A DNA stretch of 63,975 nt, counting the filler, from Chiloscyllium plagiosum (lineage: Eukaryota): the NCBI RefSeq assembly GCF_004010195.1. It is 6 parts of 6 records of this genome, joined end to end, with 100 filler letters (N's around TTAATTAATTAA, not from the genome) between each part and the next. Parts side by side here need not be neighbours in the genome. Positions count along the whole stretch, not along the records: positions 27,489 to 52,895 come from NC_057718.1; 5 more parts are not named here. One strand, given 5' to 3'. This document shows, in pieces, positions 25,310-63,975 of the stretch. Within the stretch, counting starts at the first letter, position 1. Each line of letters opens with the position of its first letter. The translations under genes were made by a program, and so were the position numbers. The notes under the pieces were generated by a model that saw nothing but the letters and a program-made list of their open reading frames with translations, did not search any database and was not told where the DNA came from.

Positions 25310-27210
25310 TGATGTGTGTGAGTATGAGAAGGAGTGTGTATGGGAGAGGGTATGTATGAGTTTGTGAGTGTATAAGAATGTGTGCATATGTGTGTTTGTG
25401 TGTGTGTGAGAGAGAGAGTGTATAGTGCAGTGGGGTCACCTGTAGTGTGACATGAACCCAGGGTCCTGGTTGAGGCCATCCCCATGGGTACTGAACTTGG
25501 CAATCAGTTTCTGCTCGGCCACTGTGTTGTTGCCTATCCCAAGGTCTGCCTTGGAGGATAGTCACCCGAAGATCCAAAGCCAAATGTCCCTGAGTACTGA
25601 AGTGATCCCCTGCCTGGTGAGTGTTGTGTTGGTGTCCATTCATCCATTATCATAGTGTCTCCTTGCTCTCACCAACGTATCATGCCTTGGGACATTCTTG
25701 CCTGCAGTGTATGAGATAGACCACATTGGCCGAGTCACAAGAGTACCTGTCGCGTACATGGCGGATGGTGTCCCCACGTGTAATGGTGGTATCTGTGCCG
25801 ACATTTTGACATGTTTGGCAATGGCTGCCATGACAGATTTGTACGGTGTTGTAGTCGAAGTGGTTCGGAAAGCTAGGCTGTTTGCTACGAACAATGGTCT
25901 GCTTAAGGTTTGGGGGTGCTTTAAATGTGTGATGTGGAGGCAAAAGGGAAGGTTTTGGCGAGTTCTCATCCTAATCGATAATGTGTTGCAGGCTGTGAAG
26001 AACATGGCGTAGTTTTTCCACTCCTGGGAAGAACTGGATAATGAAGGGTACCCTGTCAGTTGCATCCCATCTCTGTCTCTTGAGGACGTCATTACAGTTT
26101 CTCACTGTGGCACGTCAGAATTAGCGATCAATGAGTTGATCATCTTAGCCTGTTCTTATGAGGGCACCCTTGAGCACCTTCAGGTATCTGCCATGATCCT
26201 CCTCATCTGAGCAAATCCTGTGTATGCGTAAGTCTTGTCCATAGCAAATGGCTTTTTAATATGTTTAGGGTGGAAGCTAGAGAGGTGTAGCATCGTGAAG
26301 TCATCCATGAGTTTGCGGTAGAGTGAGGTGCTGAGGTGCCCATCCTTGATGGAGATGCATGTGTCCAAGAATGAAAGAGATACTAAAGAGTAGTTTATGG
26401 TAACTCTAATGGTGGGATAAAACTCGTTGATATCACTGTGTAGTTCCTTCAGTGATTCCTTGCCATGGTCCAGAGGAAGAAAAAGTCATCATCTTATCAT
26501 GCACTGGGACCCTGTCTAGCTATGTCGAAGGCAACTTGAAACCCATTGTACAGGGGACTCCAGCTCCTGTTGCAACACTACAGATTTAGTACACAAACAG
26601 CACCCACAGACTAGTCGAACTGGGAGCTTTGTGCAAGTGTGTAACATGCACACAGTCACTTCACTCTCTCTCTCATGCACGTGCACGCACATATAATTCT
26701 ATGGGGTGAAGCTGTATTTGCAGAATTATACTTTCTATTTTGCTCAAAGAATGCACAATTTGCATGCAGTCAATGGAGACAGTCAATCGATGCAATACTT
26801 TGTAAATTCCACTTTGGAAATGGAACGACACTGACTCAAGATTGGGACACAGCCAGATCTTTATATGAATTGTCTCAGTTGAGATATCGCCTTCCTTTAA
26901 TTAAAAAAAAAACGTAAAATATATCGAGAATATAACTTAAAAGAAGTTCTGAGCTTTACATATATATGAACTGAAACCTGAAACCATTCTAAAAGACGAA
27001 AAACTTAACTGCAGTCTGGGTTTGTTCAAGATATCATTTTAGTTGCATGACAATTCTGAGTCTTACGGTTTTGCTCCACAACTACCTGATGAAGGAGCAG
27101 TGCTCTAGAAGCTAGTGCTTCCAAATACTGGTAAATCTGTTGGATATAACCTGGTGTTGTGTGATTTTTAACTTTGTATAACCCAGTCCAATACATGCTC
27201 CGCCACATCA
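25310..27210 (-). mobile_element. Truncated Penelope element with inverted pLTR
   Basis: DGHLSTSLYRK, NVVYLIHCRQEC motifs on minus; pLTR on plus at about 26640-27210 with a degenerate hammerhead at 27083-27117. Confidence 0.85.
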
Positions 27211-27388: not shown

Positions 27389-27488
27389 NNNNNNNNNNNN
27401 NNNNNNNNNNNNNNNNNNNNNNNNNNNNNNNNTTAATTAATTAANNNNNNNNNNNNNNNNNNNNNNNNNNNNNNNNNNNNNNNNNNNN
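27389..27488. other. Artificial contig-joining linker
   Basis: 44N + TTAATTAATTAA (stops in all six frames) + 44N. Confidence 0.97.
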
Positions 27489-27574: not shown

Positions 27575-28242
27575 ACTTAGAACATAGAACTTAGAACATA
27601 GAAGAATACAGCGCAGTACAGGCCCTTTGGCCCTCGATGTTGCGCCGATCCAAGCCCACCTAACCTATACTAACCCACTATCCTCCATATACCTATCCAA
27701 TGCCCGCTTAAATGCCCATAAAGAGGGAGAGTCCACCACTGCTACTGGCAGGGCATTCCATGAACTTACGACTCGCTGAGTGAAGAACCTACCCCTAACT
27801 TCAGTCCTATATCTACCCCCCCTTAATTTAAAGCTATGCCCCCTTGTAATACCCGACTCCATACGCGGAAAAAGGTTCACATTGTCAACCCTATCTAACC
27901 CCCTAATCATCTTGTACACCTCAATCAAGTCACCCCTAAACCTTCTTTTCTCTAATGAAAACTGAACCAAGTGTCTCAGTCTTTCCTCATACGATCTTCC
28001 TTCCATACCAGGCAACATCCTGGTAAACCTCCTCTGCACCCGTTCCAGTGCCTCCACATCCTTCCTATAGTATGGCGACCAAAACTGCACACAATATTCC
28101 AGATGCGGCCGCACCAGAGTCTTATACAACTGCATCATGACCTCAGGACTCCGGAACTCAATTCCTCTACCAATAAAAGCCAGTACGCCATATGCCTTCC
28201 TCACCGCACTATTTACCTGGGTGGCAACTTTCAGAGATCTGT
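27575..28242 (-). mobile_element. Young CR1/HER1-type LINE 3' fragment
   Basis: Open frame to the natural stop (…VRPHLEYCVQFWSP…RYMEDSGLV*) with a TTCTATG/AG-type repeat tail; nearly identical to 44915-45460. Confidence 0.93.
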
Positions 28243-28665
28243 GTACCTATTCCTACCCTTGTTGTTTATTTCTGTCTAAGACAAGTTCCTGCCTCATTCT
28301 CACTTCTCTTAATTTAATCATTTGACTTCTCAGTCCCAGGGAGGGAGACAACAGGTCACGGCTTGACTCTGAACCCGAGCATTTTAGACAAACAAGGATT
28401 GGAGCCCCAGCTGGCCTGAGGTGGGGCATGTGGTGGGGGCAGGGAGATCCTGGAGGAGGAGGGACAAGAGGGAAAGGTCAATGGGCACAGAGTCTCCAAA
28501 AACAAATACTCGACAACTCATCCTCCATTCCAGTCTAGGAGAGAGGGCAATGGACAGAGCATCCAATGTAGATACTGAGACCCACCCAACTTTAAATACA
28601 ACAGAATGGCAGTGTGTTGTCCAACCCACTCCTCAGAAAAGAGGCACATTTGAAATAATTAGATG

Positions 28666-32090: not shown

Positions 32091-33549
32091 AAAAATAGGA
32101 ATTGTTGGAAAAGCTCAGTAGATCTGGCAGCGTATGTGGAGAGAAATCAAAGTTAACGTTTCAGGTCGGCTGACCCTTTTTCAGAACTAATAGTAGCTGG
32201 AAAAGTGCCCATTTTTGTGCAGATGATAGGATGGGGAAAAGAGGTAAGGAGAAAGTGATAGTTGGAGATGGAGCCCTAAGAGAGAGAAGAATGTTTGGAT
32301 AGACAAAATGTTGACTTAGATAAAGACAAGTTCCTCCACATCTCAGTTCTGAAGGGCTGCCTGTCCATTCTGAGGCTGTGCCCTCAGGTCCAAGTCTCTC
32401 CTACCAGGGTATTCATCTTCTCCGTGTCCATTTTATCCAGGCTACTAAGCATCCTGTAAATTTCAATCAGATTCTGCGTACCCTTCCACATCCTTCCACA
32501 TTCTTCCAAAGTCGATAGAATACAGACCGGGGGTCCTCAACCATTCCTCATATGACAAGCCCTTCATCCTTGGGATTATTCTTGTAAACCTCTGGATCCA
32601 CCTCCAAGGCCAGCACATCTTTCCTTAGAGTCACCTCACAGAAATAAAGAACCCCAAAGATAATTGGAAAATACATTGTCCATATTTGGAACACTTGAGG
32701 TTCTGAGAATTTAATCTCAAAAGAGAAGGCTTTTCTTTGAACTTCAAATCAAGAAGCCAAGATGTCAAATTTTAACCAGACAGGCTGATAGTTCAAGAAG
32801 ATATCCAGGAATAGAAACCAATGGGTCACTGCAGTGGTTCAAAAGGCAGCTCAGCCCCACCTTCTCAAGGCAATTAAGGATGGGCAATAAATGCTGGCCC
32901 AGCCAGTGAAACCCACATCTCACAAAACACTTGGAAAAAATTGCAAAAACTGAGTGGAACTTCTTCCCACAGTGAATCCATCCCCAAGATCACTCTCCAT
33001 CTTCTCCCCAATCTTCTTGATCTCATTACACAGAGTTGGGTTAAACAGTGACTTGGTCAATTGAGAGGTTGCAGTGGGAGGAGTGTAAAAAATTTCAATG
33101 GAAGGAATTGAAGAATATTTTGAGGAATGACAAGGCAGGTTCAAGAATATTAGCTTCACTGAGGATAAGGTACCACACATTAATAGAATAGAATAGATTA
33201 GCTTTTATTGTCACATACACTCAAATGAGTGCAGCGAAAAGTTTGTAATATCACTTCTTAGCGCCATCTTAGGTACTCAGTACCCAGGTACGGATTCTTT
33301 AAGTGCCATCACAGGATAACATCAATGTAGGTTAGCATGGAAAGAGAGTTTAAAAAGTACAAAATGATCAGAAAATGTGACTATGAATTACTTAAGTTCT
33401 GCTCCTTTTCCAACACGAGTCCATGCCCACCAGCTTCAGAACACAAGGCCATGCTGGCTCCACACGCTGGCCTCCATCCAGGACTCACTCTGCTGCTAGT
33501 CCAGCAGCGGCCCCTGTCTTACACTGCTGCCATCTTGGACAAATGGCTA

Positions 33550-36190: not shown

Positions 36191-37099
36191 CCCACCCCCC
36201 ACTGTAATCAGACTGAAACACTGTGCACTCTGCTTGCCCTCTGGTCCCAGTGAACCACCTACCCTCACCCCTCTAACCCACCCCCCTCCCATCCACCCAC
36301 AGCCCCCACCTCCTACCGCCATTGTCACAGATGGAAACTTACATTATCAAATTTGCTAATCAATTGTATCAAAGGAGCTGCTCCTTAACAAATTCAAAGA
36401 ACTATCTGAAAATCGATCCAAATAGCAAACTGCCTGTATGAGGGAAATGTGAGCACAGAGCCCCTCACATCAACAATGCTCCTTCACAGACCAATCAGCA
36501 GCACTACACAGAGTCCCTCTGTCCCCACAATCCAGACCAACCATCCGACTGCCTCTTGCCTCTTGCAATGGGGAGCCAGCTCCTGCCCACTCCCTGCTCT
36601 AGATCCTGGAATCCAGATTCACTCTCATTCCCAACACTGAGCCACCACTGATCAGGATCACAACTGATCTCGGTGTGACTGTGGTCTCACTGTCTCTCCA
36701 TCCACGTACTCTCTCCACTCTTCACTGCTTTGAGAAACTTTGGGTCCACTTTCTGTTGGAAAGTCTCAGACACACATTGCAGCTCCTGGCACTATCTCTC
36801 AGGGTCATCTTCTAATTGTTGCTTTCATCAGCTTCCTCCCAGCACCAGTGGTTTCTCCTCCAGACTCTGATCATCTCTGTGCTGTCCCCAGGGCACCATT
36901 GCTGAACACCCCACCATCATCATTTCACCCTCAGAAACCTGCTCAACATTTCCATCTCCCCCATCACTGCACTATCCATCCACCTCCTCCAATCATCCCA
37001 AGGCTGTGTCCACTCTCTCCAAATGCCCGTCCAACATGAGGACACAGCAAAGATGAAACATCCTCTTCAGCTCAGCCACACAGCCTCTCCCAATGATCC

Positions 37100-37395
37100 A
37101 ACCTCACACTTTAGTAATAGACCCCAGCGTCACTGGGCTGCACGTTTGTGATGGTCAGAATGAACCTGTTACTGGACAGGTCTCTGGAAGGCTGGAATTG
37201 CTCAAAGAATCCTGGGCTCCATTGTGTGATGTTCTTCACGTTATACATGAAAATCCACACAGTGTTATTCCCTGGTCTGCCCCAATGCCAGTGAATATCA
37301 GTGTGTGTCACTGTGGCATTCCTCATGGTGCACTGTAACCAGGCAGTCTGACCCTCGGTGATATGTTCCAGGATCAGAGGCTGGAGAATTTACAC
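37100..37395 (-). pseudogene. Germline-joined VJ-family exon, copy C (V1-type, broken)
   Basis: LQPLILEHITEGQTAWLQCTMRNATVTHTDIHWHWGRPG...FQPSRDLSSNRFILTITNVQPSDAGVYY*. Acceptor mutated (ctcaag to ctcaat), Cys codon deleted, J part lost; upstream intron matches that of 47384. Confidence 0.85.
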
Positions 37396-37829
37396 ATTGA
37401 GGGGATAAATATCAAGAATTTCAGAATCAATTCTCCAAGTTGTTACAGATCAACAAAATTTGTTTGAATAATTAATTAATTGACACATTTTCATATTAGT
37501 AACTTTTTGTTCTCATTACTATGAGTATTAAAACTATAATATAACTTGAAGAGGAACAACAGGGTCAGAGTGTAGAGTGACGTTTCCTGAATAATGACAG
37601 TTCCTGATTACAGTTCCTAGCCTCAGGCTCTCCCCATTCCCTGTCTCCACCAGGCATTCCATGATCCTCATGTGTACCATTCCCTTCTCCTTGATCCCAG
37701 CCCATTTGGTGAGATATTGAGGCAATATGGTTTGACCGCAAAAGTAAGATGGATGCAATTACTCTGATAAGATTATACTATAGCTACCACCCCCACCTCC
37801 CCACCCCCCTCCCTACTGTCACAGAGATA

Positions 37830-38745
37830 TTAAGGAGTAAATATGCAGGCCAATTTTGGAAAGATGCATAAAAAACAGAATTGTCATGGTGGGTGACTTT
37901 AATTTCACAAGATTGACTGGAACCCCCTCAGAGCAAGAGACATAGATAGGGCAAAGTGTGCTAAGTGCATCCAAGATGGTTTCTTGAAACAGTAAGTGGA
38001 TAGTCTAACTAGAGGAGTGGCCATACTGGACATTGTACTAGCGAATGAGCCTGGCCAGGTGGCTGACCCTTCAGTGTGACAGCATTTTGGAAACAGTGAT
38101 CACAACACTTTAAATGTTAAAATAGCTATGTAGAAGGTTGTCAAAGGATAGAGTGGGATAGAGATCATTTGCAGAAATGGATGGAGAAATGGCAGATGGA
38201 GTTTAATCTGGCTAAGTGTGACGTGCTGCACTTTGGGAGATCAAACATTAAGGAAAAGAACACAATAAATGGGAGGACAGAACGGGATTAATGTACAGAT
38301 GGATCTTGGGGTTCAAATCCAAAGCTCCCTGAAAATGGCCACATAAGTAAATAGGATGGCAAAGAAGGCATATGGCATTGCTTCCTTTATTGGTCAGGGA
38401 TGTGAGTACAAGAGTCAGGATGTCGGACAGAATACTTTTCCCAGAGTTGAAATGTGTAATACGAGGGGGCATGCAGATAAAGTGAGAGGGAGAAAGTTCA
38501 ATGGAGATGTGAGAGTAAAGTTTTTTTTTGCACAGATGGTTGTAGGAATCTGGAACCCACTGCCAGAGATGGTGGTTGAAGCAGACGCAATCAGGGCACT
38601 TAGGGAACTTAGATAAGCAAGGTATGGATGGATGTGAACCCAGGGCAGGCGGAAGGGAGTAGTTTCATTTGGCGTTACATTCAGCACAACATCGTGAGCT
38701 GAAGAGTCCGTTCCTGTGCTGTATTCTTCAATTTTCTATGTTCGA
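37830..38745 (+). mobile_element. Decayed CR1 LINE (endonuclease and 3' fragments)
   Basis: GDFNF...DW, PTRG.AILD.VL and TRGH...VRG motifs; TTCTATG tail. Confidence 0.8.
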
Positions 38746-41700
38746 TGATCTCTGATGACCCATTTATTTTTCAAATATGGTAGCATCTTCTGGGAAGGTC
38801 TCTCATTCTCTGCCTCACTGCTTTCCTCAGAATGATCGCCTTTCCCTGTGCCTGATTCCTCACAATCCTCCCACTGCCATGTACACATTGCCCCTGCGTA
38901 TTCACTGGGACTGGGGATCTCCTAATTACTCACTGACTCTGTGTCACCCTGTGCCCAGGTGCTGCTCAGAGAACTAGAACTCAGCTTCTTACACCCACAT
39001 GTCTTGTACCAGCTCCCAAAGCTCCTGTCTCACCCAATCCTACCATCCCCACTCACCCAGGATATATTGGCTTTCATCTCAGAATGATGGACAGAACAGA
39101 GGATCTCCCAGTTCACCTGCTCTTGGGCCTGGATAAGGTGCAGGAAGTGGCCAGTAGAGGTTATCCAAGCTGTGCCTACTGTGTGGTTGTGGCCATCCCT
39201 TGTTGTTCCAAGGGATGGCCCGAGAGGGACCGTATTGTAGAAGAGGAGAGTGTGAAATGGACTGGTAAGCTAGAAGAGATACCGACATGTAGAATGCATG
39301 TCCATTGCTCTGCTTGTGAGTTGCTATATCCGGAGAGTACTATAGAGGTTGGACAATGTCATCAGCTCCAGCAATGAGATCTGACTGTCACTCCAAGAAG
39401 TATCATTATGTTCTCAGTTGATGTTGGTATTGGACAAGTCCAATCCCAGACTGAAACCTGCTTTGGGTTTTATTTTGCATAAAATGTGCTGGTCTATCAC
39501 TGAGAAACAAACACTCAATGCTGCACATCTGGTTTCAACAATCAAATGGACATTCTCAGTTTCAAATAAACCATCTAAGAGTTGAAAGAATCAGTTCGGG
39601 TTTGGAATTATTAAAATTAAACTGCTTATACTGAGATCCCCTATACATTAATCGTCTGAAATGATCACCTTTCACAGGGGAAACTGGTTTATACATCTAT
39701 CTCCCACCAGGACCTTGTGTATTGAAACAATAAGGCTTTTCAACCAATATATCTTTCTTCCAAACAAGAAAAACAATCTAATTCCATTGACTGGAATGAT
39801 TTCAACATTTACGTTGTCAGCTCATAAAATCTCTTTGAATGGAAATACATTCACATTCGCACTCCAAGAACGGTTAAATTAAGATATCTAGTCTGGATGG
39901 ACCAAAGGGTCTGTTTCCACGGTGAATGACTCAATGACTCTAGGACTCTCGAATTCCAGAAGTATTCCCATTTTAAACTTTAAATCCCCTCACACACACA
40001 CAGACCAAAACTGACATACCACTCATTCAAAATCTAAATTCCAAAATAAATCATATTAAAATCATACAGAAACCATAGACTCAGACCACCGTGTTTAGAC
40101 TCTAATGGGGGAAGTGCTATAGTAATCAAGCCCCAATTAATGACAAGTCATACAAAATGCGTTACTGAATCAACAATACAGCCAACTTGTCGCTGTTCTG
40201 TTGTTTGATTTAAAGTTTTAAAAAAACTACAGCTTCATTAAAGACCTGACAAATAACTTATTTATTATCAGCAAGACTGATTCTTTAAAAAGGTAGAAAT
40301 TGTGGTTAGCAACTACATTTCTACTTGAGATTAAGCCTTTAATCTCAACCATACATTCATTCACAGACAAGGCAACACAGTCAGCAGAAATGGTTGAGGA
40401 TGTTGTTAAAAAAATGCCTGAAAGAAAGACCATCCCAGTGGGGCAAGGAAATCCCATCAGAAGGTGGAATGTGTTAAATTCTCAGAGTTCTTGCAATTTC
40501 TTGTCAATGAGGCTGATTCCAGAAAGTGAAATATTGATGGGAGATCTTCTGACCATAATTCAGATTCCAATGGGTAATTGTTACGAAACCTGACATTGGA
40601 AACATTATCTTTGCAAATAAGAGATTTTATCAGCTTGTTCCTTGTCTTTTACTGATTGAGAGGGAGAAATTGTGCAGCTGTTCCTGCTGGAAGAATTCTC
40701 TTTTTATCAAAAGAGAGGGATCTTTTCTCGCTGCTTTTCATCACCTTGACAATTTTGCTTTTCCTTCAATATCCAAACAGCTCCATATTCCAGCTTCTCA
40801 TAGCTCAAGAACTTAACTGTCATCTTAATATGGGTTTCTGTGCAGTGTTTTCTTTTTGCAACAGAACTTGAAAGAGTGGTTCTGATGTTAACTTTCATAT
40901 TTCATGACTTTTTTTTCAAAAAAAAAGACCTCCTGCACACCCGTTAGAATTGCACTTTTAAATAAAAATGTCTCCACTGCTCTTATTTTTCCATCCAATC
41001 TGAGTATCCTCACATCTCTCTGCATTACATCTGATCTGCTATTGGCTGCTCACTCCCCCACAATGGGACAAGTGGAAGACAAAGCCCCAGGACCTACCTG
41101 AGCCAGGATGGGGTCTGAAGCCAGGCTCTCAGCATCATCAGCATCATTCAACACAAAGCTACAGCTAATTGTGTTGGGAACGCCCAGAATATTTTGATTA
41201 CACTTCCCTAGTCAGGTGCCATGGATCAATGGAGTGTGATGTAGAATAATAACAACATCTCAGCTGCAATCCCAGTCTCAGCTGTGGGAGCTCATGAAGA
41301 GCAAACCCCACCCCTTGCCCCATCCTCAATGTGGAGTGGTTCCCTTTAATCTGGACCAAGCCAATTGTTTCTGGAATGGAGAGAGATGTGTGTGCCCCTT
41401 TGTGATCCATGGTTCATTCCCAATCCCTGGGAGATTCCCCTGCAGATGTGACACCTCACAGAGCAATCACCCTGACTCTGCACATCCAGCCCAATGGCAC
41501 TGACACTCTTGTGATTTGAATGAAATTAATATCACTCAATCTCCAGGATAAAGCTCAATTTTTCCCGCAAAATCCTTCTCCTACTGTCGTAAAAGTAAAT
41601 CCCTTTCGCCCTACTGCCCACCAAAATTGAACCTGAGCACAACTTCCTCCCCACAGTGAATCCATCCCCAAGATCACTCTCCATCACCATCTCAATCTTC

Positions 41701-41780
41701 TTGAACACAAACTGATCTCCAGGTCATTCACTGGGCATGAGGTTATTACTGGAGATCACTGTCGTGTAAACTCCACTTAC

Positions 41781-42125
41781 TGTTTACAGTGAGCAGGCTT
41801 CCTTCACCAAGGACACTTCCCCAGACTGAGCAGTAATACACCCCAGTGTCACTGGGCTGTACGATTGTGATGGTCTGAATGAAGCTGTTACTGAAGGGGT
41901 CCCTGGAAGGGTGGAATCACTGAGTGAATCCTTGGCCCCATTATGTTTGATTAAAAACAAAATGCTCCAAAATCCATTCCCTCTGACACCCTCGTTGCTT
42001 GCGGTATCAGTAAATATCGGTGTGTGTCACAGTGGCATTCATCACAGTGCACTGTAACTGGGCAGTGTGACCCTCAGTGACACATTGCAGGATAGGAGAC
42101 TGGAAAAAGATTGGGGCAGATGTAC
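41781..42125 (-). pseudogene. Germline-joined VJ exon, copy B (V2-type), three stops
   Basis: tttttaattttgaag| ... A|GTAAGT, 345 nt, phase 1-1. TSAPIFFQSPILQCVTEGHTAQLQCTV...DIY*YRKQRG...DTGVYYCSVWGSVLGEGSLLTVN; stops at 42007-42009, 41941-41943 and 41917-41919. Confidence 0.9.
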
Positions 42126-44289
42126 CTTCAAAATTAAAAATACCAATAAACAAACAGCAGTCTGATTGTTCTCAACTCCCAACAGGATTTCAAGTAACTG
42201 TACCAGCAGTCTGAGTCCTATATTAAAGAGAGGGAACAGGTTGTCAGACTGAACCAGTTGTGATGGTTTGTTCCTGATTGATATCCTGACTATCAGTCAC
42301 TGGGTGCTGAGAACAGCAATACAGATGTTGCCATACAGTGGCATGTTGAGCTCACACTGTCAAACTGCTGTCTGACATAAACTAACTTGCCACACACTGC
42401 AATCCTCTTCCTTGGACTATTCCTGACAATTCATAGCAGATGTGAGGAATGGAACTGGGAAGGGTCTGCTGCTTTAGAAAAAGCAGCCAGGTAGCATTTA
42501 AAGGGGCAGGATTTCCCCAAAGACCAACAGAGATACAGCCTCTCCAGCCTCAGCAAACCAAGGCCTCTCCACAGGTAATGGTCCCGTGGGTCAGACTGGG
42601 GGGAAATGGTGAGTCTCTCCCTCCATTCCCTGGAGACAGTATCTTTAACATGTAGGATTGAGCAAAAGATCCCGTCATCTAAAAGACTGGACAAAACTCT
42701 GGACTTTTCAAAACTTTTAATAAGTAATTGGAAGGTGGAATGAGCCCTGTGACGAATACACAAACCCAACCCACAGATCTGAGATGGCTGTCTGGAACCT
42801 TTTTTCAGCCTGGATTTCCAATTTTGCACATCATCTCTGAGAGAGCAATCAACTGAAACAGACTCTGGTCTGGGGCTGTTTTTAGACTTGGGCTGCCCAG
42901 AACAGACAGCATGGAGTCTGCAGAGATACGAGATATTCAACTCCAGTCAGAATCCATTCACACACACTCTGAACAATTGGGAAAACAACTGGCTTGAAAA
43001 GGAACACCAGAAAACACAGATTTGGCGTGAAGATAAGAGACTCACAATTAGTATAATTGCAAGTCTGGACCTCACCTAATACAGCCATCCCTGAGAGTGA
43101 TCCCCAGGACAGATCACAGGAGATATCCCTGGAAATGTTCCAAAGAGCTATCTCTAGAAGAAGAATTCCAACAGCTCATTCCAAGAGCCACTGACACAGG
43201 CCTATTCCAAACCAGGGGAACCAACAGTGACCAATCACAAACAGCAAACGCAAAAACTGACAAACCCAAAAAACCAGTGACCTGACTGACACCACAAGGC
43301 CTCAGATACATCCTGAGGTAAAACCCAGGCCTGGAAAACCAGCAGAAAGGAAAGAAATCCAAACCCCAATAGATCCATTACCCACTGTACCGCATCAGCA
43401 GATTCAACTCAAACTGAGAGGCCTTTGCAGTCTACAGTCTTCACCCAGGCTCCGGGCACGGCAAGCAGGAACAGCCAGCTGTACATCAAACAGTATTTTC
43501 CTCAGCGGTGAGCTGAAACTCCCGAGACCCTCATCAAATAAAAATAATGATAGCTGGATCCATCAAGTCTGATCTAACAATTGAAAATTGGTACTACAAG
43601 AAAGAAACTGACCTGGGTATTGGTGTAGGAGAAAGAAAGGTAGTAGGGTCAGGGATTCAGATCATGCTGCGACAGTGAGATTAATGAGAATGGAACCATG
43701 GGAGAATTCAGTGAACGTGAAAGGCTTGTTTTGAAGATGATGAAGCATTTAGGATGAGCAAGGCAGATCCCTAACATATCTCACAAAGACAGTTAAGGTG
43801 GAGAAATAGTCCTTTAGAAATCTTCAGAGAAACTGGAGGAATAAAACGTCTGTGGCTGAAAGAGCAGCAAGTTCTAGAGAACAGCCAGAAAGATATTATC
43901 ACCATAACGGAACAAGGCTGCAACCACAGAAAGGAGCATGTTTCCACTGTAATGACAAGAGACATACCAAAGAACAGAGAACAACACAGCACAGGAACAG
44001 GCCCTTTGACCCTCCAACCTGCACCAACACATTTAGTATAATTGTACATTCAATAGTACATTCAACCTTCCATACTAAAACTGTCTTCATTTTCAGGATC
44101 TGTATCCCTCTATTCCCTTCCTATTCATGTATTCACCCGGGTGCTTCTTGAATGCTGCTATTGTGTCAATTGCTAGAAGGTAAACCGGATGCTGATTGCA
44201 GTCGTAGCAATATCAAAGGAATCTTCAGAGAAGGGAGCATTGCAAAATTAATCACTGTTAATGATAGGGCAGTAAGAGAGAGCATGATC

Positions 44290-45900
44290 GTTTGACAATA
44301 CAATTGAGGGAGAGGGATCTCAGGACATTCGTAAGAATTTGTCTTTGGATATTATCAAGGAGATTGAGAACAATGGAGGGTCTGAGTGTTGTATCTCAAA
44401 GGGGTTTTTTTCTGTTTCAAAGCAAGGAGATAAACAAACAATATCTTGAGAGGCTGTTGGGTATGTCAGTCACTGATGCTACCTAATGGTCCTGTTTGAC
44501 TTCCAGAGGAGTTAATGAAGGAGAAAGTTGTAAATGGAGGCATTCATAGAGATTACAACCCAGTATAATCACACAGAAATGGATTCTCAAGTGACTTGGT
44601 CAATGGAGATGTTGTCGTAAGAGGGATGTAATACATTCCTATTGGGAGAATTGATAATACTTTGGGGAATAATTAGACAGGTTATAGAATATTAACCTCA
44701 CAAAGGATACTGGAAAAAAACAGTAAAAATGAAAAACGCTGAAATGCTACAAGTCACAACACATACTGTGTTTTTGAAAACTGCAACTGAAAGTAGGAAG
44801 TTAAAGAGAATTCAGCTGATAGTTTTTAGAAAATATTCTTTTGCACAAATACAACAGAAAGGTGGCAAATGGAGTTCAATGTAGCTAAGTGTGATGTGAT
44901 TCACTTTGGTAAGAGTAAATAAGACTTTGGTGCGGCCACATCTGTAGTATTGTGTGCAGTTTTGGTCGCCATACTATAGGAAGGATGTGGAGGCACTGGA
45001 ATGGGTGCAGAGGAGGTTTACCAGGATGTTGCCTGGTATGGTAGAAAGATCGTATGAGGAAAGGCTGAGGCACTTGGTGTTGTTTTCATTGGAGAAAAGA
45101 AGGTTTAGGGGTGACTTGGTAGAGGTGTATAAGATGATAAGGGGTTTAGATAGGGTCGACAGTGAGAATCTTTTTCCACGTATGGAGTCAGCTATTACAA
45201 GGGGGCATAGCTTTAAATTAAGGGGGGGTAGGTATAGGACAGATGTTAGGGGTAGGCTCTTTACTCAGCGAGTCGTGAGTTCATGGAATGCCCTGCCAGT
45301 AGCAGTGGTGGACTCTCCCTCATTATGGGCATTTAAGTGGGCATTGGATAGGCACATGGAGGATAGTGGGCTAGTGTAGGTTAGGTGGGCTTGGATCGGT
45401 GCAACATCGTGGGCCGAAGGGCCTGTACTGCGCTGTATTCTTCTATGTTCTATGTTCTAATTGGATCTGAACTGAGAGAGCTTTATCCAACAGCCTCAGC
45501 AGAAAGGGAATCAGAAACAATCCTTGAATGTTCTTACCTGAAAGACAAAGTATTAATGAGGAATTAGATTCTGTCCCAAATACCAGGTGCTGAGGAATGG
45601 ACCATGGTGCATCAGGTAGTCACTCCATCTGAGAACCTGAATGAGATCTCACACATTAGCTTATGAAATTCCAATGGCAGAGCATTAATGGATGAGGAAC
45701 ACACAGTCCATTATTTCAAGCATTTATATTGGTCAGGATTATATAAAGATGTTAACTTTTACCAGACAAGCTGGTCCATGCCAGGACTTGGGAAATCCCC
45801 AACCCTCAATTAAAGCTTCACCTATAATCCTGATTGCAGCTTTTGAAGAACCGTTTAGCAGAGTCTTGATAGATTGTGCAGGAGCCCGACTACAACCCAG
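44290..45900 (+). mobile_element. Gypsy (Gmr1-like) retrotransposon remnant: protease followed by integrase, interrupted by a LINE
   Basis: Protease-like remnants at about 44400-44700, then ELRELY...LMR...HQVV...HLYWSGLYKDV...CQDLG...AFEEPFSRVLIDCAG (integrase zinc finger and core start) at 45465-45900. Confidence 0.7.
44855..45460 (+). mobile_element. Young CR1/HER1-type LINE 3' fragment inserted in the Gypsy remnant
   Basis: QFWSPYYRKDVEALEWVQRRFTRM...EDSGLV* and TTCTATG tail. Confidence 0.92.
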
Positions 45901-45970
45901 GAATGTCAACCAGTGGGTCACTGCAACGGTTCAAGAAGGCAGCTCAGCACCAGCTTCTCAAGGGCAATTA

Positions 45971-46816
45971 ATAGGCAATAGACAATAGGTGCAGGAGTAG
46001 GCCATTCTGCCCTTCGAGCCTGCACCACCATTCAATATGATCATGGCTGATCATCCTTAATCAGTATCCTGTTCCTGCCTTATCTCCATAACCCTTGATT
46101 CCACAATCCTTGAGAGCTCTATCCAACTCTTTCTTAAATGAATCCAGAGACTGGGCCTCCACTGCCCTCTGGGGAAGAGCATTCCACACAACCACCACTC
46201 TCTGGGTGAAGAAGTTTCTCCTCATCTCTGTCCTAAATGATCTACCCCATATTTTTAAGCTGTGTCCTCTTGTTTGGCACTCACCCATCAGCGGAAACAT
46301 GTTCATTGCCTCCAGAGTGTCCAATCCTTTAATAATCTTATATATCTCAATCAGATCCCCTCTCAGTCTTCTACATTCAAGGGTATACAAGCCCAGTCGC
46401 TCCAGTCTTTCAGTGTAAGGTAATCCCGCCATTCCAAGAATTGACCTTGTGAACCAAGCTGCACTCCCTCAATAGCCAGAATGTCTTTCCTCAAATTTAG
46501 AGACCAGAACTGCACACAGTACTCCAGGTGTGGTCTCACCAGGGCTCTGTACAGCTGCAGAAGAACCTCTTTGCTTCTATACTCAATCCCTTTTGTTATG
46601 AAGGCCAGCATGCTATTAGCCTTCATCACTACCTGCTGTACCTGCATGCTTACCTTCATTGACTGGTGTATGAGAACACCCAGATCTCTCTGTACTTCCC
46701 CTTTACCTAAATTGATTCCATTTAGGTAGTAATCTGCCTTCCTGTTCTTGCCACCAAAGTGGATAACCATACATTTATCCACATTCAAAGTGGATAACCA
46801 TACATTTATCCACATC
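45971..46816 (-). mobile_element. CR1-type LINE 3' fragment (second subfamily)
   Basis: LVRPHLEYCVQFWS, RRLRGDLIE, QTRGHSLK; CTATTGT repeat tail; 31-bp duplication at the 5' truncation (46755-46815). Confidence 0.9.
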
Positions 46817-47039
46817 CAAAGGATGGGCAATAAATGCTGGCCCAGCCAGTGACACCCACATCTCACAAAACAATTAAATAAATTACTGCATCTGAGCTCA
46901 GCTTCCTCCTCACAGTGAATCCATCCCCAAGATCACTCTCCAACACCTCCTCAATCTTCTTGATCACAAACTGATCTCCAATTCATTCATTGGGCAGGAG
47001 GTTATTGCAGGAAGATATTGCCATGTAAATGCTACTCAC

Positions 47040-47384
47040 TGTTTACAATGCACTGGTTTCCTATCCCTGAGATGTTACCCCGCTCTGTGGAGTAATAGAC
47101 CGCAGTGTCACTGGGCTGAACGTTTGTGACGGTTAGAATGAAGTTGATACTGGAGGAATCTCTGGAATGCTGGAATCGTTCAGTGAATCCTGCATTCCAT
47201 TGTGTAGAGCTGTTTTTACCAAGTGTTAAAATTCGCACAGTGTGACACCCTGGCTTTTGTCGGTGCCATTTAACGGTGGTGTGTGTCACTGCGACGTTCC
47301 TCATGGTGCATTGTAAACGAGCAGTGTGACCCTCGGTGACATGTTTGAGGCTTGGAGACTGGAGAAGGACGACTGAATTGGCAC
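47040..47384 (-). CDS. Germline-joined VJ exon, copy A (V1-type), open frame but YYC changed to YYS
   Basis: tttttgatcttttcccctcaag| ... A|GTGAGT, 345 nt, phase 1-1. (G)ANSVVLLQSPSLKHVTEGHTARLQCTMRN...VKWHRQKPGC...RFQHSRDSSSINFILTVTNVQPSDTAVYYSTERGNISGIGNQCIVN; no RSS. Confidence 0.85.
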
Positions 47385-48789
47385 CTTGAGGGGAAAAGAT
47401 CAAAAATTTTAGACTCAATTCTCTGGGTTACAGAGATTGAATCATTAGAATTGTAGCAGATAAAACAAAAGATATTTAATTGATGAAATAAATTTAACAA
47501 CTATTTGTGTAAATAATTAAAGATCCTGAGACAGTAGGAAATAGGAACAGGAGGAGGCTGCTCGGCCCCACAAGCCTGCTATGCCATCCAATAGGATCCT
47601 GATAGATCGACATTCCTCACGACCACTTCCCTGTGATTTCCCTGTAATGCTTGATTTCCCAACTAACCAAGAATCTCTCTGTCTCAGACTTCAATCTTCA
47701 CAAGGATACAGCCCATCCACAGCTCTCCGTAAGTTCCAAATATTCACAAGGCACTGACAGAAGAAATTCCTCAACACCTCAGTTTTAAATTGGTGCTTTG
47801 TAATTCTGAGACTGTGTCCTTTGGACTTAGACTGTCCCATGAGGGAAATCATCCTGTCAAGCCCCTTAAGAATCTTATATCTTTCAATGAGATCACCTCT
47901 CATTCTTCTAAACCCCAGTGAGGAGCGACCCAACTTATATTTTTATTCACTTGTGGAATGTGGGTGTCACTGGAAGGACATTTATTGCCGATCATGTGTT
48001 GCCCTTTAGAAGGTGGTGGTGATGTGCCGCCTTGAACCGCTGCAGTCCATGTGCTGTAGGGAGACCCATAATTCCCTTAGGAAGGGAATTCCAGGATTGT
48101 GTACCCATCTGGGCAAGTGGGGAGCATTCCACCACACACCTGGCCCACCATTTGGTGGGGCAAGCCTGTTGGGGTGGGGTCCCCAAGGCAAGTCCCAGGC
48201 AGCCCCAAAATTTAGTCCCAGGCATTAACGGTGGAGGTGGGCCTCAGGTTGCAGCAGTGGTGGAGATTGTGGGGAGGGGCCCAAGGTGAGTCCCAGGTAG
48301 CGGTGGTGGCGGCAGGCAGGCCTCAGGCAAGTCCTAGGCAGGCCCTTGGTTGCAGCGGTGGGGGCAGACCTGATTGTGTACCCATCTGGGCAGCCCCAAA
48401 ATTTAATCCCAGGCAGCAGCAGTGGAGGTGGACCTCTAACAGCAGCGGCAGTGGTGGAGGTCCCGGGAAGGGCCCAAGGCGAGTCCCAGGCAGCAGCAGT
48501 GAGGCAGGCCCCAAGCAGTAACATTTTTTCCTCTTTAACCCCCACACTACCATTTTTTTCTTTCTTCTCTTATTTTATCCCCAGCACCCATGGGTGTTTT
48601 GTTTTTTAGGCAAGTCCGGGCGGGGTCCCAGAGACCAGCAGTGGGAATGGGCCCCAGGTCAGCAGCAACCTGGGTGAGGCCCAGGCTGCAGCTCCAAAAG
48701 TAGGCCCCAGATTCAAAAGCTCTCACCTCCTTCTGCTTCTGCCTCCTCTTCTCTTCTCTCTTCGGGGCAGCTGGTTCAGGGATGATCCC

Positions 48790-52895: not shown

Positions 52896-52995
52896 NNNNN
52901 NNNNNNNNNNNNNNNNNNNNNNNNNNNNNNNNNNNNNNNTTAATTAATTAANNNNNNNNNNNNNNNNNNNNNNNNNNNNNNNNNNNNNNNNNNNN
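52896..52995. other. Artificial contig-joining linker
   Basis: 44N-TTAATTAATTAA-44N. Confidence 0.97.
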
Positions 52996-53166
52996 TGTTC
53001 TTGTAGTTACTGGGATTAACTGGCTTGTTATTGTTTGTCCACTTGACGAAGATCTCTCAGGAAGAGAAGCCTCTCACTAAACAGGTGAGGGAGAGAAACC
53101 TCTTAGCGGAAACGTCTTCAGTTGATGGCAGGAGGATCGACACTGATGGCTCCAGTAGCTTTTCTC
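52996..53166 (-). pseudogene. IgW: IgW heavy chain constant exon (CH4-like), 5' part, nonsense codon
   Basis: Acceptor tattctgcag; (G)[55 protein letters not shown]; TGA at 53057-53059. Matches recalled shark IgW C-domain sequence. Confidence 0.85.
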
Positions 53167-53608
53167 CTGCAGAATATTTGAAACAAATATAAATCCACTA
53201 TAAAAATCCAAAATCAATATTGCAATTTCAGACATATTAAAATGTGTCAGTTTTGTTTTTAAATTTAGAATTTATACACTCTCATTTTCTGAACGAGCAG
53301 AATGATATCCATCATCATCATTAAGACTAAAGAGTTTAATTCGAAAGCCGCCTCCATGTTTCCAACCCAAAACAAAGACCTCCTGTACATTTGTCATTGC
53401 TGATGTTAAAAACACAGACTAGGCTTCTTCCCACTTTATTTGACTTATAATGAAAAAAGAACAAGCTTTGGTCCATCTTGTTCTCAATCAGATATTTAGC
53501 TAACCTGACATCAGACATATGTTTAATGCTCCCAATGTTATTTGGAGCCAATCCAAGCATGTCATTTACGTTACTGGAATGCTTTGTTTTTTTCATCTCA
53601 CCGCTCAC

Positions 53609-53916
53609 CATTTTCTTTCTGGATGGAGTCTCTCAGTGGAGTCGGTAGATACAGATGGTTCACCAAACCTTCAAAACTAACGTGACTCATCCAGGCTTCA
53701 GTAGAAGTGCTTAATTTGCTGATCACGATGTCTGGATTTTCTCCAGGCTGGTTAGAGATCTCTGATTTCAGAGTCTTCTTTTCCTGTACCAGGTGACATT
53801 GGCACCAGAAGAAAGATTGGACACAACACAGGTTAATGACACCGTCGCCTCCCGTAAGATGTGTTCTAATGGCGGTGGTAGGATTTTAACTGTGTAATCG
53901 TGGCAATCAGTAACTT
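53609..53916 (-). pseudogene. IgW: IgW heavy chain constant exon (CH3-like), frameshifted
   Basis: tttctgtttcatag| ... G|GTGAG, 308 nt. VKILPPPLEHILREATVSLTCVVSN...VTW/QEKKTLKSEI...AWMS..FEGLVNH.YLPTPLRDSIQKE; 1-nt deletion near 53788; second Cys changed to Gly (53667-53669). Confidence 0.87.
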
Positions 53917-55638
53917 CTATGAAACAGAAATCAAATCAATGAAAAATGCCTCTTTAGGATCAAATCACCGAGTCTTCAGGCTATTTACTCATGAAGTGAA
54001 GAAACCACCTTTGACATGGCAGCTTCCAAATGTTGCTGAAATGATGGTTCCTCTTGCTGACATATTTTGATTTGTGAAAACATTGGTTATTATCTATAAC
54101 ATGACGCATGTAATCATTCATAAAGAACACTGGCTTTGCAACTCGTGAAACCTGTGAAAAAGTAAAATCAAAGATACCATGACGTAACACATGGAATTAC
54201 CTTCCTTTCAGAGCTCTTCTCTCACTTCGGACCATCCTTTTATACTTTTGACAAGCTTAATCTGAATATAACGATTTCATTTCTATGTTAATGAAACTTA
54301 CTTGCAAATGCTGCTGGACATTCTGAATGTCAAATTACATCCCCAATTTTTAACAAACTGTAATCAATCATAATTATTTTCTTTGTTCTCATGCGTTTGC
54401 AGGCGTTTAAAAGTGTTAGGGGGCAGTTATCAGTCACAGAAATTCCGTTCAATGTGTTTAACGTTATTGTAAATTATTTGTATTATTGGTGTGAGATCAT
54501 TTTCAAAAACATACCATGAGATATTATTCCTCCTGTCAAATTTGTAGTAGGTGTACAAACAAAACAGTGAATTTCTTAGTAGAATAGAAACAAAACAAAT
54601 ACGAGTGTCTAACATTATTCTACAAATTGTTGGAAATTTGCGTGAGCATTATTCAGACTTCCACTGATCACAGTGGGAANNNNNNNNNNNNNNNNNNNNN
54701 NNNNNNNNNNNNNNNNNNNNNNNNNNNNNNNNNNNNNNNNNNNNNNNNNNNNNNNNNNNNNNNNNNNNNNNNNNNNNNNNNNNNNNNNNNNNNNNNNNNN
54801 NNNNNNNNNNNNNNNNNNNNNNNNNNNNNNNNNNNNNNNNNNNNNNNNNNNNNNNNNNNNNNNNNNNNNNNNNNNNNNNNNNNNNNNNNNNNNNNNNNNN
54901 NNNNNNNNNNNNNNNNNNNNNNNNNNNNNNNNNNNNNNNNNNNNNNNNNNNNNNNNNNNNNNNNNNNNNNNNNNNNNNNNNNNNNNNNNNNNNNNNNNNN
55001 NNNNNNNNNNNNNNNNNNNNNNNNNNNNNNNNNNNNNNNNNNNNNNNNNNNNNNNNNNNNNNNNNNNNNNNNNNNNNNNNNNNNNNNNNNNNNNNNNNNN
55101 NNNNNNNNNNNNNNNNCCCCACCTCAGTTACAAATGGTGCACTCTTTGTCTCCGAGGCTATGCCCTCATGTCCTACTCTCGCCGACTTGTCAAAACATTT
55201 ACTCCACGTTCACCCAAACCCGGCCTCCCTGTATGTTTTAAGTTTCAAAAAAATACTTCTGCGACCCTAATCCCCCGGCCCACACAAGACACGCACCCCT
55301 CCCCCACCCGCTAAACCCTTTAGCCTTAATGAAGTCACCAGGCGTGGATTCGGCACTCTAACTGCCTCTCCAAGTGTGGTCAGCCAACAAACTACTTTCA
55401 AAAAAAGACTGTTAAGCCAGCTCACATGTCTTCAATATAGAGGAAAACATGCTCTTCTGATTAGACATAATGTTGAATTATGAGCAATGCTAATGTCACA
55501 CTCAAACTGAAATGCATGACACGTTTTTGAATGGGATGCTGCACACTTTAGTGCTGTTGACTAAGTTTGATAAATGTGTGTATCTGATTCACATCGGAGT
55601 TCAGAATGATTTCTAGTGCTCTCGTATGTATGTCTTAC

Positions 55639-55849
55639 CCTGGGGTGTGGTGATGTTTTGACTTTGAGTGTTCTCTCCATGAGTGACCTGGCAGTTGAAC
55701 ACTGCGCTGTTGAACCATTCACCATAACAGCCGGTCAGCCGATTTATTGCCGAGAAATTTCCATTCACCTCACACACGGGAGATGTGAAGACACCAGAAT
55801 CCACGGATTGGCCATTTTTCAACCAACTCATGGAGATTTGCTTCAGATG
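55639..55849 (-). pseudogene. IgW: IgW CH2-like exon, 3' two-thirds only (5' part replaced by a LINE)
   Basis: HLKQISMSWLKNGQSVDSGVFTSPVCEVNGNFSAINRL...EWFNSAVFNCQVTHGENTQSQNITTPQ G|GTAAG; LINE sequence begins at about 55850. Confidence 0.85.
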
Positions 55850-56477
55850 GATACCTGCTACTTGTTAGCACTCTTCGGGGGCGGGGGTTTAAACTAATTA
55901 AGCAGGCGGATGGGATCCAGACTTGTAGTCTGGATGTCCAAGAATGTTGGGATGCTGTGGAGAAAGTAGCACTGAGAGGGAATACTTGCAGAAACAGAGA
56001 TGAGTTCAAGTGTGTATACTTCAACGCAAGTAGTATCAGAAATAAGGTGGGTGAACTTCAGGCGTGATCGGTACTTGGGACTACGATGTTGTGGCCATCA
56101 CGGATACGTATAAAGAAGAGGGACAGAAATGATTACAGATGTTTCAGTAAGATTAGGGAGGGTGGTAAAAAAGAACGGGTGTGTGGCGTTGCTAATTAGA
56201 AATGCAGAAATAAGACAGGCTGTAGAAAGGCAGTTCGAGAAGGATCTGCCTTTGGAGGTAGTATGGGCTGAAGTCAGAAATAGAAAAGGAACAGTCACCT
56301 TGTTGGGTGTTTTATATAGGCCCCCCAATAGCAGCAGAGATGTGGAGAAACAGATTGGGAAACAGATTTTAGAAAAGTGCAGAAGTCACAGGGTAGCCGT
56401 CATGGACGATTTCAACTTCCCAAATATTGATTGGAAACTCTTTAAATCAAGTAGATTGGACGGGGCGGTGTTTGTGC
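55850..56477 (+). mobile_element. CR1 LINE ORF1 end / ORF2 endonuclease fragment
   Basis: CVYFNASSIRNK, VLYRPPNS, DFNFPNIDW. Confidence 0.88.
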
Positions 56478-56577
56478 NNNNNNNNNNNNNNNNNNNNNNN
56501 NNNNNNNNNNNNNNNNNNNNNTTAATTAATTAANNNNNNNNNNNNNNNNNNNNNNNNNNNNNNNNNNNNNNNNNNNN
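56478..56577. other. Artificial contig-joining linker
   Basis: 44N-TTAATTAATTAA-44N. Confidence 0.97.
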
Positions 56578-57227
56578 ATTATTTGAAACTGATTGCTGAT
56601 TGGCTGTCAGGATCATCTACCACGGATTGACAGGCCACGTAGCCAATTGTGACAATGTCATGCTGACATGCAGCCAATCAGCTGAATGGAGTGGTCCATT
56701 TCTAAAGCACACAGAGATAGAGACTGAATCTTTATCATCTTTATTCTCTTTTCCAGACTGACATTGACAGAAAACAGACTGCAATTAACAGCCCAGACAG
56801 AGGAAGCTGCACAAAATAACAGCTACAATGGGTTTTGAGGAAAACACTTGTGGAGATTTTCTCAATAACATGAGAATCCTGTCCTTCAAATAGTGACAAA
56901 AAACCTTAAATTGGAACTGGCTGCTGAGCAGGAAGGAGATCTGATTTATTGAAACAGAAATTTCGACGGTTCACATTGTTTTGTACAGCTGACAGCCTGT
57001 CCCAATCAAACAGTCCCAGAACAGGGAGAGCATGAGGTTTGACACAGCGTAAAGCTCTATCTACACTGTCCCAATGAACTACCTTTACTCCTGAACCTCA
57101 GAAGTGTCTCTGAGCCAGTCCTGATAAGGAAGAGAGTTGAAATTCAGTGCTGACCATGACCTTTGTCCTGCCAGCTCAGCCCTGTTCTATTAAAGTTGTG
57201 TCTCCTCTGTGGACTGTCTCAAACACT

Positions 57228-57555
57228 CTACACACATTCTGATCTCCTGATGCTCTTGCTGAGGGAGAGGGGAGGGTCACGTGGGTGAGGGCACAGGAGA
57301 AGCGAGCGTTGGACTCCCAGTCAGACCCAGAGAGGGTCAGCAGGCTGCTGACACTGTAGGTGCTGTCCGAAGCTCGCAGGTAGTTGCTGGTCTGAACCCC
57401 GTCCGAAATGACTGCACCGTCCTTCTTCCACTGCACCTCCAGCTCATCGGGATAGAAGTGATTGGCAAGGCACACCAGGGTGGCAGTGCCCTTGGCATTG
57501 ACCTGCTCCGGGGAGGGGGGCAGCGGGGTTAGCTTGGGCTGAGAGTTTTCACGGC
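57228..57555 (-). CDS. IGKC: Ig light chain constant exon, kappa (shark NS4/type III) class; 1-nt deletion near the 3' end
   Basis: Acceptor tctcttgtctttcag; RENSQPKLTPLPPSPEQVNAKGTATLVCLANHFYPDELEVQWKKDG...YSVSSLLTLSGSDWESNARFSCALTHVTLPSP/SKSIRRSECV*. Minus-strand AATAAA at 56945-56950. Confidence 0.9.
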
Positions 57556-58408: not shown

Positions 58409-58508
58409 NNNNNNNNNNNNNNNNNNNNNNNNNNNNNNNNNNNNNNNNNNNNTTAATTAATTAANNNNNNNNNNNNNNNNNNNNNNNNNNNNNNNNNNNN
58501 NNNNNNNN
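58409..58508. other. Artificial contig-joining linker
   Basis: 44N-TTAATTAATTAA-44N. Confidence 0.97.
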
Positions 58509-63891: not shown

Positions 63892-63975
63892 CCAAACGGT
63901 GACAGGAAGCAAATGTCAACGTCAAAACCTAACGATATTTTCCTGGTTTTGTAAAATCATGGACAACAACGGCGG

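Follow-up and report, generated by a model that had tools for sequence, protein, structure and literature searches.

Three related variable (V) domain exons on the minus strand of a 63,975-nucleotide stretch of DNA from Chiloscyllium plagiosum (here called the window, meaning the whole stretch that was analysed) raise the question of what kind of gene is built from V and joining (J) sequences that already lie together in one exon. The sequence-only reading of this locus had proposed a non-rearranging receptor organized as a V1-V2 unit, perhaps followed by a constant (C) domain, akin to the double-V antigen receptors. The present analysis points to a different answer. The exons, termed A, B and C, are probably tandem VJ-domain exons, now damaged, from predicted paired immune receptors of cartilaginous fish, whose domain likely came from a germline-joined exon of the sigma-2 immunoglobulin (Ig) light chain. 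The wider proposition, that these receptors are an undescribed chondrichthyan family more than 400 million years old, domesticated from a RAG-joined sigma-2 VJ exon and hence an adaptive gene turned innate, is in our judgement about evenly balanced between true and false. The locus in the window is only a damaged fragment, and the interest lies in the family to which it belongs. The exons are as follows.

Exon A, 47040-47384, minus strand: VJ domain exon of 345 nt, phase 1-1, with an open frame and the Cys104 codon replaced.
Exon B, 41781-42125, minus strand: VJ domain exon of 345 nt, phase 1-1, with three in-frame stops.
Exon C, 37075-37395, minus strand: relic of a VJ domain, its lower end approximate.

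Direct reading confirms that A and B are VJ exons of the length and phase first described, each with its own G strand (ISGIGNQCIV in A, VLGEGSLLTV in B) and donor. Both are bounded by AG and GT, the donors being GTGAGT in A and GTAAGT in B, and exon A matches the Pfam V-set domain at 6.7e-13. Searches by tblastn and with a hidden Markov model (HMM) of the family described below locate three such exons in the window. In all three, the first and second complementarity-determining regions (CDR1 and CDR2) read as 8 and 7 residues. A scan of the window for recombination signal sequences (RSSs) found none at the V 3′ ends of A, B or C, as had been claimed, and returned two weak matches within exon A, away from CDR3. 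The scan can be relied upon, since it recovers a perfect 23-RSS behind an unrelated V segment at 63853.

The suspicion that this copy is decaying was also borne out. In exon A, the Cys104 codon has become TCC at 47091 and the CDR3 and G strand are degenerate; among 121 matching family motifs, none lacks that cysteine. Exon B has the junction SVWGSV-LGEG and carries stops at 42009, 41943 and 41919, and the splice from A to B is in frame, as proposed, up to those stops. Exon C has lost its acceptor AG (CAAT at 37399-37396), carries an 11-nt deletion and a stop at the position of Cys104, and retains a shifted remnant of the CDR3 and GxG G strand with no donor; it scores 120.8 bits against the family HMM. 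The copy is thus most likely a pseudogene fragment left by birth-and-death turnover, as judged from its sequence.

What the intact genes look like is revealed by the relatives of exon A. A search limited to proteins of 199-2000 residues gave 142 candidates, 75 of which passed the cut-off of E<=0.001. These 75 come from 19 species, all sharks, rays or skates, and their identity to exon A is 45-74%. All three window exons share 63-79% identity with domains of these proteins. Over framework regions FR1-FR3, exon A is 79% identical to domain 2 of P0006 (branch support 100/98), and exon C is nearest to domain 4 of the same protein, at 70%. Exon B and domain 1 of P0010, a domain with the junction SVWGSV-LGGG, fall together with support of 97/94 when CDR3 and J are included. 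The automatic names of the relatives follow no consistent scheme and are generic (IGSF2/3-like, SIRPA-like, pIgR-like, perlecan-like, uncharacterized), and none names a family. Example models are P0006, P0014, P0045, P0048 and P0054.

The intact gene models follow one layout: a leader, one to nine VJ domains, a short stalk, an uncharged transmembrane (TM) helix, and a tail with either a pair of motifs resembling immunoreceptor tyrosine-based inhibitory and switch motifs (ITIM/ITSM) or an immunoreceptor tyrosine-based activation motif (ITAM). Two relatives have a single V domain, 26 have two, 23 three, 17 four, four have five, two have six, and one has nine. The TM helix comes shortly after the last V domain in 60/75, and in none of these 60 does its core contain a charged residue. 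The 60 tails comprise 30 with an ITIM/ITSM-like pair, 11 with an ITAM, 10 with other ITIM-like motifs, 5 of other kinds and 4 that are short; their shuffled versions contain 0.21 ITAMs and 0.01 pairs. None of the 75 has a C1 domain outside its V domains, and the Pfam C1-set matches in three of them are partial cross-hits within V domains. From these sequences, the family is predicted to consist of paired inhibitory and activating receptors, and the earlier suggestion of a non-rearranging multi-V family is in this respect supported.

The domains themselves are uniform. CDR3 has 6 residues in 213/215, with tryptophan third in 201, which upholds the earlier claim of a short, fixed CDR3. There are two cysteines within FR1-FR3 in 244 of 273 domains and never more than four, and all domains of the five proteins scored are classed as V-set. 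N-glycan sequons average 3.4 per domain, one of them at the G strand in 197/232. As modelled by AlphaFold, P0045 has three V domains, all well predicted, along with a TM helix and a tail that is disordered; the mean pLDDT is 77.5 and the pTM 0.36, the latter leaving the packing between domains undefined. Internal domains begin xANAP, xANPP or xANVP, as do many first domains. The GANS at the start of exon A, formerly taken for the end of a signal peptide, is therefore better explained otherwise: the intron interrupts its first codon, and the nearest relative of the exon is an internal domain.

Within a species, most of the NCBI models share one longest-contig value, which suggests that the family genes form one cluster per species. 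The scaffolds of the family and of sigma-2 differ within species, with longest contigs of 92.6 versus 10.8 Mb in Rhincodon, 120.9 versus 22.1 Mb in Heterodontus and 99.3 versus 9.7 Mb in Stegostoma. Two members, P0071 and P0084, have very long or Asn-rich stalks and are either mucin-like forms or annotation artefacts; the skate model P0071 has 1,666 residues between the V domain and the TM helix. Three further models, P0222, P0223 and P0120, represent divergent branches of the family, approximately 33-42% identical to exon A and sharing their longest contigs with the main cluster, and P0222 retains the ITIM-like pair.

Several comparisons address the origin of the domain, and all of them draw attention to sigma-2. 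When 1.84 billion representatives were searched without an index, the single-V matches to exon A that ranked best outside the family were light chains of sharks, in a cluster that contains a record under the name Igsigma-2. Measured against 40 sampled family domains, mean identity was 44% for sigma-2 (10 rows), 36% for VJ-C1 genes of turtle, caecilian and bamboo shark (5), 34% for lambda (7), 31% for kappa (4), 31% for sigma (2), 29% for Ig heavy chain (IgH; 5), 26-30% for T-cell receptors (TCR; 12) and 28% for NITR (6). The family HMM gives at least 88 bits to all 72 sigma-2 V domains and at most 70 to all 315 other V domains, and four motifs, chosen by eye, are shared by the family and sigma-2 and absent from 315/315 others. 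A CDR1 of 8 residues together with the sigma-2 spacing from W41 to C104 occurs in 190/273 family domains, 65/72 shark and ray sigma-2, 8/13 VJ-C1 and 16/315 other domains. Lengths of 8 and 7 for CDR1 and CDR2 are described as constant in sigma-2 (PMC5985310). The frameworks are thus antigen-receptor-like, as first noted, and specifically sigma-2-like.

Joining of sigma-2 genes in the germline is known. Skates, gar, coelacanth and turtle have sigma-2 genes joined in the germline; PMC5985310 gives the bony-vertebrate sigma-2 genes as joined and includes genes of Pelodiscus in the joined class, and P0181 would be one of the latter. Germline joining has also been documented for the NS4 light chains of sharks (PMC2193156). 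A J is recognisable in 49/72 sigma-2 V domains, and 3/49 of these, in models from zebra, whale and bamboo shark, read EVWGYI-xGGG, showing that sigma-2 V-J joining can yield a junction of the family's type.

These three carpet-shark sigma-2 models, P0268, P0282 and P0287, conserve the junction EVWGYI across three genera. They could be the joined neonatal partner of IgM1gj. Their candidacy as the direct source of the family is weakened by two results: on frameworks they nest within shark sigma-2 (98/96), and their C domains share 90-99% identity with those of other carpet-shark sigma-2 genes. With CDR3 and J included, they branch first in sigma-2 (85/80). We read them as a separate, later join, with shared ancestry a possibility. 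Another joined gene, the Chiloscyllium punctatum VJ-C1 model P0193, is approximately 40% identical to shark sigma-2 and lies on an 80.7-Mb contig; it is a divergent light-chain-like gene that branches near both sigma-2 and the family.

The family shares with sigma-2 (also called sigma-cart, type I or NS5) its nearest V domain, CDR1 and CDR2 lengths, FR3 motifs and single-exon VJ (compare PMC5985310 and PMC5192425). Unlike sigma-2, it has no light-chain C exon, and it has one to nine tandem V domains, a TM helix, an ITIM or ITAM tail and heavy glycosylation. It has also lost the FR2 proline, which is conserved in 65/69 sigma-2 domains and is not among the six commonest family residues at that position. 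The FR2 proline has a role in the pairing of V domains. Its loss, together with the heavy glycosylation, suggests from the sequence that the family domains are unpaired rather than forming an Fv-like site.

Taken together, these features can be accommodated by a single history. A sigma-2-type V-J exon would have become joined in the germline before the lineages of chimaeras and elasmobranchs diverged, would have lost its C exon, and would have come to lie upstream of TM and signalling exons. The phase 1-1 exon could then have been duplicated one at a time, which its symmetric phase makes possible, with the old split-leader residues reused as a linker between domains. The product would be a leukocyte surface receptor displaying a string of unpaired, heavily N-glycosylated V domains that bind fixed ligands. 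The likeliest of these would be self surface proteins, or mimics of them made by pathogens, which usually drive paired families. As CDR3 is fixed, diversity would reside in germline CDR1, CDR2 and FR2 and in domain number. Following the established biology of these motifs, the ITIM/ITSM forms would recruit SHP-1/2 and inhibit, while the ITAM forms, by recruiting Syk-family kinases, would activate with no adaptor needed.

Phylogenetic analysis supports the unity of the family. A careful tree was built from 41 rows of an 85-row set, the full set being placed by a quick tree. The family, the window exons and domains from the chimaera Callorhinchus form one clade, with support of 95/96 in the 41-row tree and 98/96 in a second sample, and sigma-2 forms a clade with 99/98 in the 41-row tree. 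Three single-domain Callorhinchus entries fall inside the family clade in the quick tree, and two of them do so in the 41-row tree. No bony-vertebrate member was found in the searches made, and HMM scoring of all matches from the search of 1.84 billion representatives ranked none with the family. The multi-V matches from outside sharks, ten of which were checked by name, were set aside: by sequence they are gene models made up of several Ig or TCR V segments run together, plus one synthetic single-chain variable fragment. Sequence searches of the PDB and Foldseek searches with two models returned generic antibody V domains only. The ESM Atlas yielded an uncharacterized V-set cluster with 100 members, which may be that of the family, followed by TIGIT-, MPZL1-, pIgR- and BTLA-like clusters; this serves as a lead only. 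A literature search turned up no description of the family; its coverage was partial, and supplementary tables could list such genes. The family is thus apparently unnamed, with an earlier description possible.

A number of observations weigh against the origin proposed here or limit its reach. The grouping of the family with shark sigma-2 (81/73 in the 41-row tree), or with these plus VJ-C1 (88/67), has moderate support, and in the second sample the sister group is instead turtle and caecilian sigma-2 (85/72). The approximately unbiased (AU) test does not reject the family with NITR (p=0.23), the family with TCR (p=0.27), or a sigma-2 clade that leaves the family out (p=0.40); the nesting of the family within sigma-2, and hence the direction of borrowing, is therefore not established. 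The outgroups lack shark kappa, lambda, sigma and IgH, most shark TCR, and NCR3, CD8, PRARP and UrIg, and most of their labels are our own assumptions from familiar motifs. Slow rates of change in sharks could inflate the likeness to sigma-2. The Callorhinchus members are single-domain fragments, and a search for longer forms gave 61 matches, all from elasmobranchs.

Further such points concern the gene models. Fifteen of the 75 relatives have no TM helix. All are predictions, the long multi-V ones may fuse neighbouring genes, and P0016 has a tail-like stretch in mid-protein. The motifs and the pattern for an ITIM pair were defined after the sequences had been inspected, and the length limit of the search excluded shorter proteins. 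Finally, leader, TM and tail exons were sought in the assembly piece that bears the three exons (27489-52895) by tblastn with 53 leaders and 70 tails and by a pattern scan, which gave only repeat-derived or chance matches. The earlier reading had found neither leader nor C exon in the fragment, and the same holds for the whole piece. This piece extends only 5.5 kb upstream of exon A, and the leader exon may therefore lie off it.

The same family could have had the opposite history. Its fixed exon, xVWG(Y/D)I-xGxG, would then be a never-split relic of the VJ exon ancestral to rearranging sigma-2, and shark sigma-2 would have gained its RSSs afterwards. Consistent with such a history are the infirm nesting of the family in sigma-2 (AU p=0.40), its age, which reaches back to the chimaera split, the joined state of bony-vertebrate sigma-2 genes (PMC5985310), and the early branching of the 6-residue-junction sigma-2 genes when CDR3 and J are included. 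In addition, the residues GY end split V models and precede FGxG in joined ones, and could represent a duplicated target site. Yet the family is closer to one light-chain isotype than to other Ig and TCR V domains, such that a relic would require a separate RAG invasion for sigma-2; the documented joining in shark NS4 light chains (PMC2193156) supplies a precedent for the reverse process; the 6-residue-junction genes nest inside shark sigma-2 on frameworks alone; and the searches made found no member outside cartilaginous fish. A relic therefore seems unlikely, and origin from a joined sigma-2 exon is preferred.

It is improbable that NITR, or some other VJ receptor that does not rearrange (NCR3, CD8, XMIV or PRARP), is instead the orthologue of this chondrichthyan family, whose sigma-2 likeness would then be due to slow shark evolution. 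The NITRs of ray-finned fish do have the same design, being type I TM proteins with non-rearranging single-exon V-J domains, encoded by multigene clusters and occurring in inhibitory ITIM-bearing and activating forms (PMC2442602 and bioRxiv 10.1101/2021.06.11.448072). Moreover, the AU test leaves a union of the two unrejected, although the best trees do not join them, and the comparison set contained no NCR3, CD8, XMIV or PRARP. However, identity is 28% to NITR against 44% to sigma-2. NITRs combine one V domain with a six-cysteine I domain and signal activation through a charged TM residue and DAP12, whereas the family has V domains only, up to nine of them, without the cysteines of an I domain, an uncharged TM helix and an ITAM of its own. 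None of 22 name-checked non-family matches was labelled NCR3, CD8 or PRARP, most matches being unnamed. NCR3 (NKp30) has a single VJ domain and a charged TM residue. Compared with that description, 73/75 relatives have at least two V domains (in a search of proteins of at least 199 residues) and 0/60 have a charged TM helix.

The arrangement first proposed for the locus, a non-rearranging V1-V2-C antigen receptor like NAR-TCR or TCR mu and duplicated as a unit, depends in part on the introns, for which the following features are relevant.

Intron end upstream of exon A, 47385-47430, minus strand: homologous to the intron end upstream of exon C, 37396-37435.
Intron start downstream of exon A, 46892-47039, minus strand: homologous to that downstream of exon B, 41633-41780.
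Orphan copy of the intron that follows the donor of exon A, 32805-33025, minus strand: collinear with 46819-46968 and 45897-45980, in blocks of 86% and 84%.

The upstream introns behave as first described. Those of A and C are 87% identical over 39 nt (a blastn block) and 66% alike over 100 nt, where shuffled sequences average 53% and reach at most 62%, whereas A and B are 54% alike, at shuffle level. The downstream introns, by contrast, link A with B: the first 160 nt are 82% identical, and a single blastn block (46892-47369 against 41633-42110) spans both exon and intron. The orphan copy beyond C, a match for part of which a common repeat accounts, is likely an intron that has moved away from its place after C, or after a fourth exon now deleted. 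The intron common to A and B, together with the orphan copy beyond C, is therefore easier to reconcile with duplication of a single exon plus its flank, and subsequent shuffling, than with the copying of a V1-V2 pair. The in-frame splice from A to B, the upstream intron shared by A and C but not B, and the 26/75 relatives with exactly two V domains would all suit the paired unit. Nevertheless, C1 is absent from all 75 relatives and from the piece 27489-52895, V domains number from one to nine, the nearest relative of exon A is an internal domain, and the uncharged TM helices precede tails with their own signalling motifs. NAR-TCR and TCR mu resemble the family in having more than one V domain per chain, but they have a C domain and rearrange at least one V, NARTCR being termed 'doubly rearranging' (PMC12227049). 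That likeness did not survive the lack of RSSs, C1 domains and charged TM helices, and such a receptor is very improbable here. In layout, TCR mu is such a multi-V chain, and TCR TM helices are charged.

Finally, despite their sigma-2-like frameworks and CDR lengths and an Ig light-chain C exon at 57266-57555 in the window, it is hardly credible that A, B and C are three decayed, separate germline-joined light-chain clusters (VJ-C), as that C exon is on another piece and upstream, no C1 exon lies between or after the three, they are 63-79% identical to family domains, and their grouping with sigma-2 apart from the family is rejected (AU p=0.002). A grouping within such clusters, which the sequence-only reading had named as decisive against itself, is upheld for the sigma-2-like V domain and not for the genes, which are not light-chain clusters.

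Other systems share some of these traits. UrIg/UrIg2, PRARP and other VJ-C1 genes of elasmobranchs are also non-rearranging single-exon VJ genes, and are discussed as relatives of the RAG target (PMC12227049 and PMC10751288). Compared by description only, UrIg differs in combining VJ with C1 domains and in being secreted, while the family is membrane-bound with signalling tails. The CD300/TREM/pIgR-like receptors and the skate MDIR are familiar as paired V receptors with ITIM-bearing and activating forms, some with several V domains; their V domains are not antibody-like, which by description sets them apart. A non-rearranging tandem form had been thought notable in itself, a view tempered by the V-J and I-J single exons and ITIMs that NITRs already possess.

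The significance of the family would thus lie in its history. Single-exon VJ genes are usually taken as relics of the exon invaded by RAG (PMC12227049 and PMC10751288), and the family suggests traffic in the reverse direction, from a joined antibody exon to a new germline receptor, an outcome predicted in PMC2193156. Either direction bears on the kinship between antigen receptors and innate V receptors, and junction DNA makes the matter testable. Conversion of adaptive to innate genes was reportedly proposed as possible by Lee et al. in 2000. The family is also a concrete candidate for the paired leukocyte receptors of sharks, in which NITRs and receptors of the leukocyte receptor complex (LRC) type are reported missing; the sources on NITRs report none from cartilaginous fish (PMC2442602, bioRxiv 10.1101/2021.06.11.448072). 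If the proposal is true, its members would be candidates for the natural killer (NK)-type receptors so far unidentified in sharks, and the activating forms among them would have an ITAM of their own.

The wider surroundings of the exons are shaped by the make-up of the window, which is a chain of separate assembly pieces linked by five identical joins of the form N44-TTAATTAATTAA-N44.

Assembly join, 27389-27488, no strand: lower limit of the exon-bearing piece.
Assembly join, 52896-52995, no strand: upper limit of the exon-bearing piece.
Assembly joins, 56478-56577, 58409-58508 and 62846-62945: the three remaining joins.

Exons A, B and C all lie within one piece, and each of the four small pieces after 52995 contains an immune-gene fragment. 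These fragments could pass for a natural cluster. Linkage of A, B and C to the MHC (major histocompatibility complex) class I, light-chain C, heavy-chain C and TCR-like exons at 53000-63900 was nevertheless rejected, as the N-joined pieces are separate and their exons provide no evidence of linkage.

Among these fragments, an intact V segment at 63559-63840 (plus strand), which we take to be TCR beta-like, is the one followed by the perfect heptamer-23-nonamer RSS at 63853; it has no firm place in the 85-row quick tree. Exons for alpha2, alpha3 (Pfam C1-set) and TM regions at approximately 58970-59800 (minus strand), broken by an N gap, are presumably of MHC class I. The light-chain C exon at 57266-57555 (minus strand; Pfam C1-set), its 3′ end apparently frameshifted, is only 36-44% identical to sigma-2 C domains and hence not sigma-2; we assume it to be of the sigma isotype. 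Three damaged Ig heavy-chain-like C1 exons at 53015-53152, 53732-53893 and 55664-55840 (minus strand), with a stop and frameshifts, are presumably IgW/IgNAR-like. Transposon remains are also present (9931-10928 against 13096-14082; 25418-26491; 27585-28246; 44919-46800). They comprise relics presumed to be Penelope-like (GIY-YIG), among them two copies in inverted orientation that are 87% alike, and numerous CR1-like long interspersed element (LINE) relics, one of which is inserted in the intron after exon A.

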